This document shows, piece by piece, positions 42,685 through 43,452 of a DNA stretch of 64,000 nucleotides. Position 1 is the first letter of the stretch, and the number at the start of each line of letters is the position of its first letter. The stretch comes from Escherichia coli. GTDB lineage: Bacteria; Pseudomonadota; Gammaproteobacteria; Enterobacterales; Enterobacteriaceae. The translations under genes were made by a program, and so were the position numbers. The notes under the pieces were generated by a model. It was not told the DNA's origin. It saw only the letters and a list, made by a program, of their open reading frames with translations, and did not search any database. The stretch lies in NCBI RefSeq assembly GCF_048403405.1, contig NZ_CP183129.1. One strand, 5' to 3'.

Positions 42685-43368
42685 TTACTCTCTGAAGGTC
42701 TGAATTACGTCACTTATGAAACGAAAGTGAGGGAGGGCTGAAATAAACTCTTCACTGGCAGTCAGAGCATCAAGTTCAGGCTTTCTGCGGAAAGAGGTAT
42801 CCAGAACGGTTACGGCGTTAACGTCTTCCATCCGAAACACCTGTAAATTTCTGGTGCGGGTAGCAACAAGAAACCAGTTTTTGGACTGAAATATCAGACG
42901 GCGGGGAGCTACTGCTTCGTAGCTTTTACCGTTAACCAATAATGTAACGGCGCGGTAGTCGCGGATAGCTTCCGCCAGTTTCAGAAAACAGGCAGTCTGC
43001 GTGACGGGAGAAGATAATGCCCCATGCCCAATAAGACACGGCGATACGCCGGAATTGCTGGCAATCAACCGGATCAACTTGCGGTTCTGAGCCGGAATGA
43101 TTCCTGAAATTCCTGAATTACGTATAAACGCAAATGTATTGGGTAAGTGCTCCCGGCCTGTTTGGCGGATAAGTCGGTAACTTCCGCTGCGATGCTCAAG
43201 ATCCAGATGGATCAGGCGTTGCTGAAAATCCCGCTGTAGGGTGCGTTCTGAGACACCAAATTCATCAGCTAATACTTTAAGCTCCAGAGATTCACCAGCC
43301 AGTAAGCGGCTGATAATGACTGATAGCCTGACAGACAGGCGGTCATGATGATCATGCTGTGTTTTCAT
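42685..43368 (-). CDS. WYL-domain transcriptional regulator with N-terminal HTH (YfjR-like)
   Basis: N-terminal HTH (RLSVIISRLLAGESLELKVLADEFGVSERTLQRDFQ) followed by a WYL-like domain. Start is uncertain: the ORF track begins at a GTG at 43440, with internal ATGs at ~43401 and ~43368. Confidence 0.7.
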   Translation of the reverse strand: MKTQHDHHDRLSVRLSVIISRLLAGESLELKVLADEFGVSERTLQRDFQQRLIHLDLEHRSGSYRLIRQTGREHLPNTFAFIRNSGISGIIPAQNRKLIRLIASNSGVSPCLIGHGALSSPVTQTACFLKLAEAIRDYRAVTLLVNGKSYEAVAPRRLIFQSKNWFLVATRTRNLQVFRMEDVNAVTVLDTSFRRKPELDALTASEEFISALPHFRFISDVIQTFRE

Positions 43369-43431
43369 AGTGGGGACAGTCCTGTTCTCCCAAAATATCA
43401 TGGTGTTGATACGGGAGATTATGCCGTACAG

Positions 43432-43452
43432 GTACGACACGTTATGTCGTAC
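43432..43452. promoter_or_regulatory. Palindrome upstream of the WYL regulator (candidate operator)
   Basis: GTACGACA-cgtta-TGTCGTAC, 8-bp perfect inverted repeat in the regulator's 5' region. Confidence 0.3.

Follow-up and report, generated by a model that had tools for sequence, protein, structure and literature searches.

Comparative sequence analysis of an island-borne WYL regulator from Escherichia coli points to three features that are new for its uncharacterized family: a second operator upstream of the gene, an operator code that appears to hold across the family, and an activator-type promoter geometry. By analogy with characterized WYL activators, we consider ligand-dependent autoactivation of an operon made up of the regulator, a GTPase, and a 261-aa protein to be the most likely mechanism, with chances a little better than even. 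Coordinates here and in Table 1 are those of the window, meaning the whole 64-kb stretch of DNA that was analyzed.

Table 1. Features of the regulator, its upstream region, and the adjoining genes
Feature	Position	Strand	Remarks
YfjR-family HTH-WYL regulator, 227 aa	42685..43368	-	homology, profiles, fold model
Winged HTH of regulator	about residues 3-66		recognition helix 41-51 with R42, Q45, R46
WYL beta-barrel of regulator	about residues 126-192
Predicted -10 hexamer CATAAT	43418..43423	-	invariant in close clade; 11 nt downstream of proximal operator
Proximal operator (predicted), GTACGACA-CGTTA-TGTCGTAC	43432..43452		core CGACA-N5-TGTCG at 43435-43449
A/T tract AAAAAAT (+ strand)	43470..43476		about -59 to -65 of predicted promoter
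Distal operator (predicted), CGACA-CAACC-TGTCG	43557..43571		122 bp from proximal operator, center to center
Divergent cargo operon	44037..46181	+	180 aa, 90 aa (CxxC), 324 aa, 97 aa (GIY-YIG); no operator
YfjP/YeeP-like GTPase gene	41633..42645	-	39 bp downstream of regulator stop; probably cotranscribed
261-aa backbone protein	40836..41621	-	third gene of probable regulator operon

On the minus strand, an open reading frame from 42685 to 43440 opens with GTG. In RefSeq the same protein, WP_000856938.1 ("WYL domain-containing protein", 684 nt, 227 aa), starts at the ATG at 43368, which is also the alignment start for all 24 homologues that we compared. With this start the palindrome discussed below lies upstream of the gene and not inside it. 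The first-pass annotation had called the protein a WYL-HTH regulator, and both halves of that description have comparative support. Pfam matches to HTH_11 (residues 14-49, 1e-3) and WYL (residues 128-187, 1.4e-3) were both marginal, the PADLOC WYL model matched at 1.3e-16, and NCBIfam holds no model covering the family. An AlphaFold (AF2) model of the regulator, with a mean pLDDT of 72.7, has three helices and a beta-hairpin wing at residues 3-66 (pLDDT 81-89) and a five-stranded barrel at residues 139-192 (pLDDT 82-89), joined by a linker (residues 70-125) of two short helices at low pLDDT (47-59). The top 23 PDB fold matches of this model were all wHTH-WYL regulators, including PafBC (the top match), DriD, CapW, and BrxR; the model also matched the DriD C-domain structure 7tzv, and the family profile matched the WYL domain of PafBC with an E value of 1.8e-6. 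The WYL motif itself reads W-F-L in this regulator and W-Y-L in most homologues. Beyond the barrel the model has only about 35 residues (193-227), short helices of low confidence, and in the homologue alignment a conserved ALPHFRFI motif stands where a WCX domain would be. As modeled, the regulator is without the WCX domain, a feature of about 100 residues in wHTH-WYL-WCX proteins that in Rl CapW spans residues 193-297 (PMC11662680).

The regulator is a full-length homologue of E. coli K-12 YfjR, with 42% identity across 225 residues (E 9e-57). At 80 loci from other species and genera, the family always lies within CP4-type island backbones wherever the locus is informative, among YfjP GTPase, DUF932/YfjQ, YfjS/T, YfjX, RadC, YeeU-CbtA, AlpA, and YfjJ neighbors, and at most of these loci the regulator is internal to the backbone and faces no cargo. 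The island in the window is an integrative element of the CP4-57/CP4-44 type. An alternative raised by the first-pass annotation, that this could be the YfjR-like regulator of a CP4-type backbone, therefore proved right, on the strength of both the YfjR identity and the CP4-type context. YfjR, an uncharacterized "DeoR-type" factor of the CP4-57 cryptic prophage, comes from the same island type, although the gene orders differ: the window regulator heads the regulator-GTPase-261-aa unit at the edge of the cargo, whereas yfjR has yfjQ on one side and ypjK-yfjS-yfjT on the other. The literature describes neither an operator nor a mechanism for YfjR (PMC8464067, PMC8249747, PMC9308461), and it gave no ChIP-exo signal under the conditions tested (PMC8464067).

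Other parts of the backbone vary or carry genes of separate interest. The backbone sits at tRNA-Leu here, with a decayed integrase, and at tRNA-Sec in Nissle 1917, C25, TUM1880, and SMBL. A frameshift interrupts the GTPase gene in the window and in identical strains; C25, Nissle 1917, W, and further strains encode the full 337-aa protein. At the far end of the backbone, past DUF4942 and a CbtA/YeeU pair, an AbiE-type toxin-antitoxin pair (33524-34928, minus strand) consists of an AbiEii/AbiGii-family nucleotidyltransferase toxin and a DUF6088 partner.

A perfect palindrome had been noted in the 5' region of the regulator, and we found the exact 8+8 inverted repeat, GTACGACACGTTATGTCGTAC, at 43432-43452, 64 bp upstream of the regulator ATG; it occurs once in the 64-kb window even when three mismatches are allowed. 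Its core, CGACA-N5-TGTCG, has exactly two copies in the 64 kb, where 0.05 are expected, and both fall in the regulator's intergenic region. Looking for the palindrome elsewhere in the island, a check that had been proposed with the original observation, thus turned up a second copy of the core, at 43557-43571, and no third in the window. No operators other than these two came to light when the surroundings of the cargo operon and of BREX, and eight related E. coli islands, were searched. Together, the proximal and distal copies make up a 22-nt direct repeat. The distal copy is a conserved island amid diverged sequence and is the most widely kept site across the family: at most loci SGACA-N5-TGTCS is found -184 to -204 relative to the ATG, and another site follows at about -81 to -75. 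Conservation of both extends across species and genera, while their flanks diverge.

Two further observations concern this intergenic region and its counterparts. In Xenorhabdus mauleonii (L043), the proximal operator is tandemly duplicated (two copies of CGACA-TAACG-TGTCG, 36 bp apart), there is no distal site, and truncation has left about 100 codons of the regulator gene. Beyond the distal operator, at 43600-43650 of the window, lies a conserved block, TTTTCAGAACTAAATCATTT (minus strand), with homologous stretches in L004 and L006-L008; this block, found in several E. coli, Xenorhabdus, Huaxiibacter, and Photorhabdus islands, may be the true end of the backbone or a protein-binding site.

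Residue 45 of the recognition helix (TL[Q/R]RD) covaries with the outer base of the operator. Arginine at this position goes with GGACA...TGTCC at 50 loci, and glutamine goes with CGACA...TGTCG at 14 loci, plus 5 more in which one side has T or A; two doubtful sites with one mismatch are the sole exceptions. A neighbor-joining tree implies five or more exchanges of Q and R at residue 45, and where a site is detectable the outer base tracks it: for example, one locus (L030) with Q inside the R clade has CGACA, and four (L013-L016) with R inside the Q clade have TGTCC operators. YfjR, with R45 and GGACA, differs in both residue and base from the window regulator, with Q45 and CGACA. The two flanking arginines, R42 and R46, are invariant among the 25 homologues aligned. 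In the crystal structure of DriD, Arg37 and Arg41 read two guanines and Glu40 reads C1 (PMC10853764). We infer that R42, Q45, and R46 correspond to DriD R37, E40, and R41 from the shared R-x-x-X-R spacing and not from an alignment, which would make the covarying base the one read in DriD by Glu40; DriD was not among the matches in PDB sequence searches with the whole protein, its HTH, or a generic YafY-like HTH. The covariation supports direct binding of the operators by the regulator.

Could the palindrome instead be a chance inverted repeat, or a hairpin in the transcript, with no role in protein binding? About one NGACA-N5-TGTCN is expected by chance per 64 kb, and a lone palindrome of 8+8 nt is not rare. 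However, two core copies fall in one intergenic region against the 0.05 expected, they keep fixed positions across genera while their flanks have diverged, and they covary with a residue of the recognition helix. Across the loci compared, conservation and covariation effectively refute the chance-repeat reading, to which we would assign only a very slim probability. An Rfam scan of 43300-44100 returned only a sub-threshold RAGATH-30 match (20 bits against a gathering score of 59.5), and the small open reading frames of the intergenic region offered nothing notable. The earlier proposal that the palindrome is the regulator's own operator thus has comparative evidence behind it, in the form of conservation and covariation.

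The surroundings of the proximal site bear on what the regulator may do there. At 68 of 82 loci, a [TC]AnnnT hexamer (CATAAT, TAAAGT, TAAAAT, TAGAAT, and others) comes after the proximal half-site TGTC(G/C) with exactly 11 nt in between. The 11-nt spacer comprises 45 different sequences, and the background rate of the hexamer is 3.7% per position. We found no -35 hexamer at the regulator promoter, and scans of the intergenic region of 12 homologous loci with the sigma-70 consensus and weight matrices found no position-conserved promoter on either strand; yfjR likewise is without a canonical sigma-70 promoter (PMC9308461). Transcription is predicted to start near 43411 on the minus strand, which would place the proximal operator at -38 to -24 of the regulator promoter. 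This activating geometry is confined to the proximal site read toward the regulator: around the distal site no -10-like hexamer stands at the activating distance, whichever way the site is read, and the proximal site read in the divergent direction does not have the geometry. A/T tracts stand at a similar position in both clades and may be UP-like elements for alpha-CTD, whose involvement here we infer.

The geometry of the proximal site, as far as it can be read from sequence, is that of DriD and PafBC promoters. DriD of Caulobacter crescentus and DdaA of the Moraxellaceae are WYL activators that respond to ssDNA or DNA damage. DriD sites lie where the absent -35 would be, with a fixed distance to the -10, and in the "optimized -35" oligonucleotide of the DriD study, TTGACA begins at C4 of the site (PMC13004042). 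DriD recognizes the consensus ATACGAC-N7-GTCGTAT (PMC10853764), with the same 7-bp arms and the same spacing as the window palindrome, and the DdaA motif is CGWCA-N5-TGWCG (PMC12392091). Both proteins have in common with the regulator two helix-3 arginines four residues apart, a site in their own promoter region, and operators that take the place of an absent -35 and keep a set distance to the -10. They differ from it in size (DriD has 327 aa and DdaA is about 38.7 kDa, compared with 227 aa and no WCX) and in setting, both being chromosomal master regulators, whereas the window regulator is carried on a mobile island and has only its own two sites in the 64-kb window. PafBC, the sigma-adaptation activator of mycobacteria, recognizes tGTCgg-N10-tAnnnT, with a -26 element at -23 to -28 and no -35 (PMC8635444), a motif equal to the regulator's TGTC(G/C), 11 nt, and TAnnnT without a -35. 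PafBC is, however, a heterodimer or fusion on a nonpalindromic site and binds only with RNA polymerase, whereas the regulator would be expected to act as a homodimer on a palindrome and has a second, distal site. YfjR shares the two-site layout, with GGACA-CCACC-TGTCC at -187 and a GTCCA-TACCC-TGTCC site 11 nt ahead of TAAAGT.

Given that the proximal operator is placed as in DriD and PafBC promoters, activation by the regulator of its own operon appears the most likely reading. A dimer of the regulator would bind the two CGACA-N5-TGTCG operators, with R42 and R46 of helix 3 reading both G:C pairs of each half-site and Q45 reading the outer C. From the proximal operator, it would recruit or adapt RNA polymerase to the -35-less CATAAT promoter, and the activated output would be the regulator, the YfjP-like GTPase, and the 261-aa protein; the distal operator may serve as an auxiliary, higher-order site. 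The signal would enter through the WYL domain and, by analogy, could be ssDNA that arises when DNA is damaged or a phage attacks. In CapW, ssDNA is contacted by arginines of the RWHVR motif (PMC11662680); the equivalent stretch reads N-W-F-L-V in the regulator and x-W-Y-L-V in the family as a whole, and the ligand may therefore be something other than ssDNA. The silence of YfjR in ChIP-exo (PMC8464067) is what ligand-dependent DNA binding would lead one to expect.

Several observations count against activation. An operator at -38 to -24 would also let a repressor block RNA polymerase, the regulator is about 100 residues shorter than DriD, PafBC, CapW, and BrxR and is without WCX, the linker that contacts RNA polymerase in DriD is modeled here with low confidence, and the proximal site of the YfjR clade has a degenerate promoter-distal half (GTCCA). 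To our knowledge, the mobile-element WYL regulators studied so far, BrxR and CapW, are repressors. An autorepressor like these would use the same sites to occlude RNA polymerase, perhaps with a loop, until a signal at the WYL domain released the protein and derepressed the operon. The overlap of the proximal site with the core promoter would allow this, the fold fits CapW and BrxR about as well as DriD and PafBC, and looping would be favored by the 111-122 bp that separate the two sites and by the A/T tract in that interval. BrxR, itself a repressor, has a pair of R-boxes whose spacers are 5 bp long (PMC9122601), and ssDNA releases CapW from dsDNA (PMC11662680). Set against these points is a promoter with no -35, where no canonical promoter is predicted, and an 11-nt spacing that stays invariant through 45 spacer sequences, which stereospecific activation needs and occlusion does not. 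The half-site and geometry equal those of three characterized activators, and the repressors' RWHVR motif is absent. A repressor should, moreover, sit on its DNA when cells are unstressed, but YfjR was silent in ChIP-exo (PMC8464067), and the distance between the two sites is neither constant across loci nor helically phased, a check of phasing having returned no clear looping signature. We regard autorepression as a serious but distinctly less probable alternative to autoactivation.

A likeness to BrxR and CapW had been suggested from the outset, and it holds in part. Both share with the regulator the wHTH and WYL fold, a palindromic operator with a 5-bp spacer, and a location in defense islands. 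Both have WCX and the RWHVR motif, however, and the regulator has neither; the BrxR operator lies downstream of the -10, whereas the regulator's lies over the position of the -35; and, unlike BrxR and CapW, the regulator is not coinherited with any one defense system and is found beside four different cargos. The analogy with these repressors is thus doubtful, and the sequence and position of the operator match the activators DriD, DdaA, and PafBC.

The same comparison of cargos bears on whether the regulator governs the divergent operon, as BrxR and CapW govern neighboring defense systems. The two are separated by a divergent, AT-rich region (GC 0.34-0.43, compared with about 0.46-0.50 in the flanks), as had been described, although its length is 668 bp and not about 600 bp. 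The case for control of the operon (taken as 44037-46539) lies in the divergent arrangement, in the defense-like nature of the cargo (a PDC-S57-like GIY-YIG protein and PDC-M14A), and in the fact that all 25 copies of the operon in complete E. coli genomes adjoin the regulator; DdaA, too, governs defense genes via the same motif (PMC12392091). Against it, 208 of 5426 complete E. coli genomes, Nissle 1917, ABU 83972, and W among them, have the GTPase-regulator-palindrome module, and only 25 of those 208 have the operon. An identical regulator adjoins Abc3C in Nissle 1917, C25, TUM1880, and SMBL, type I R-M in E. coli W and 2013C-4282, and a codirectional TIR gene with R-M in YA-1, and in all of these islands both sites keep unchanged offsets from the ATG while no site lies near the cargo. 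In the window the nearest site is 466 bp from the ATG of the operon, there is no third site, and a -10-like hexamer at the activating distance is missing from both sites when they are read toward the operon. Across the family, the regulator is mostly internal to the backbone, with no cargo to face. The idea that the regulator might control the adjacent operon is therefore not supported, and we consider such control quite improbable.

Because the same regulator and both of its sites stand beside unrelated cargo, we regard it as a regulator of the backbone and not as one dedicated to the operon; the neighboring defense operon appears to be interchangeable cargo and no direct target. High-identity homology to other E. 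coli islands stops at about 43476, and the regulator marks the fixed edge of a slot where defense cargo is exchanged.

The slot itself and its contents are of interest in their own right. On near-identical backbones (L002-L004, L086-L089), the interval from about 43476, by the regulator, to the integrase is a cargo-exchange slot, occupied by BREX together with the operon, by Abc3C, by type I R-M, or by TIR with R-M. The 324-aa cargo protein in the window has a weak REase-like match. Within 45888-46600, the 97-aa GIY-YIG protein covers only the first 91 of 212 positions of the PDC-S57 profile and may be a truncated or split gene. The "fifth gene" of the operon (46189-46539, 116 aa) may not belong to it; the segment 46202-46600 recurs with 99% identity on at least nine E. 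coli plasmids, none of which has the rest of the operon, and is followed here by an IS3 pseudogene. Between pglX and pglZ of the type 1 BREX operon lie two extra genes (52775-54459, minus strand), one for a 373-aa AAA ATPase and one for a protein of 189 aa. BREX in the window is without BrxR, and brxA abuts a frameshifted integrase and tRNA-Leu just past the window; the 64-kb window scan found no operator near brxA.

Our results offer a first prediction of how the uncharacterized YfjR family of E. coli works. YfjR is among the K-12 transcription factors still without a known site, signal, or target, and for it we would predict the operator GGACA-N5-TGTCC, a promoter, a specificity residue, and a reason for its negative ChIP result, namely ligand-dependent binding. 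They also caution that a WYL gene beside a defense operon need not be the repressor of that operon. More broadly, and tentatively, since we place the chance of this wider picture somewhat below even, the YfjR family may be a compact, WCX-less, island-borne branch of the DriD/DdaA/PafBC regulators in the Enterobacterales, one that senses ssDNA or another signal of damage or infection and switches on CP4-type genes from -35-less hybrid promoters. This would extend the promoter logic of DriD and PafBC to the mobile islands of the Enterobacterales. If it is true, E. coli, including K-12 via YfjR, has a LexA-independent, mobile-element-encoded transcription circuit that responds to damage or infection, and the operator code of that circuit, Q45 with C and R45 with G, would be readable from sequence.
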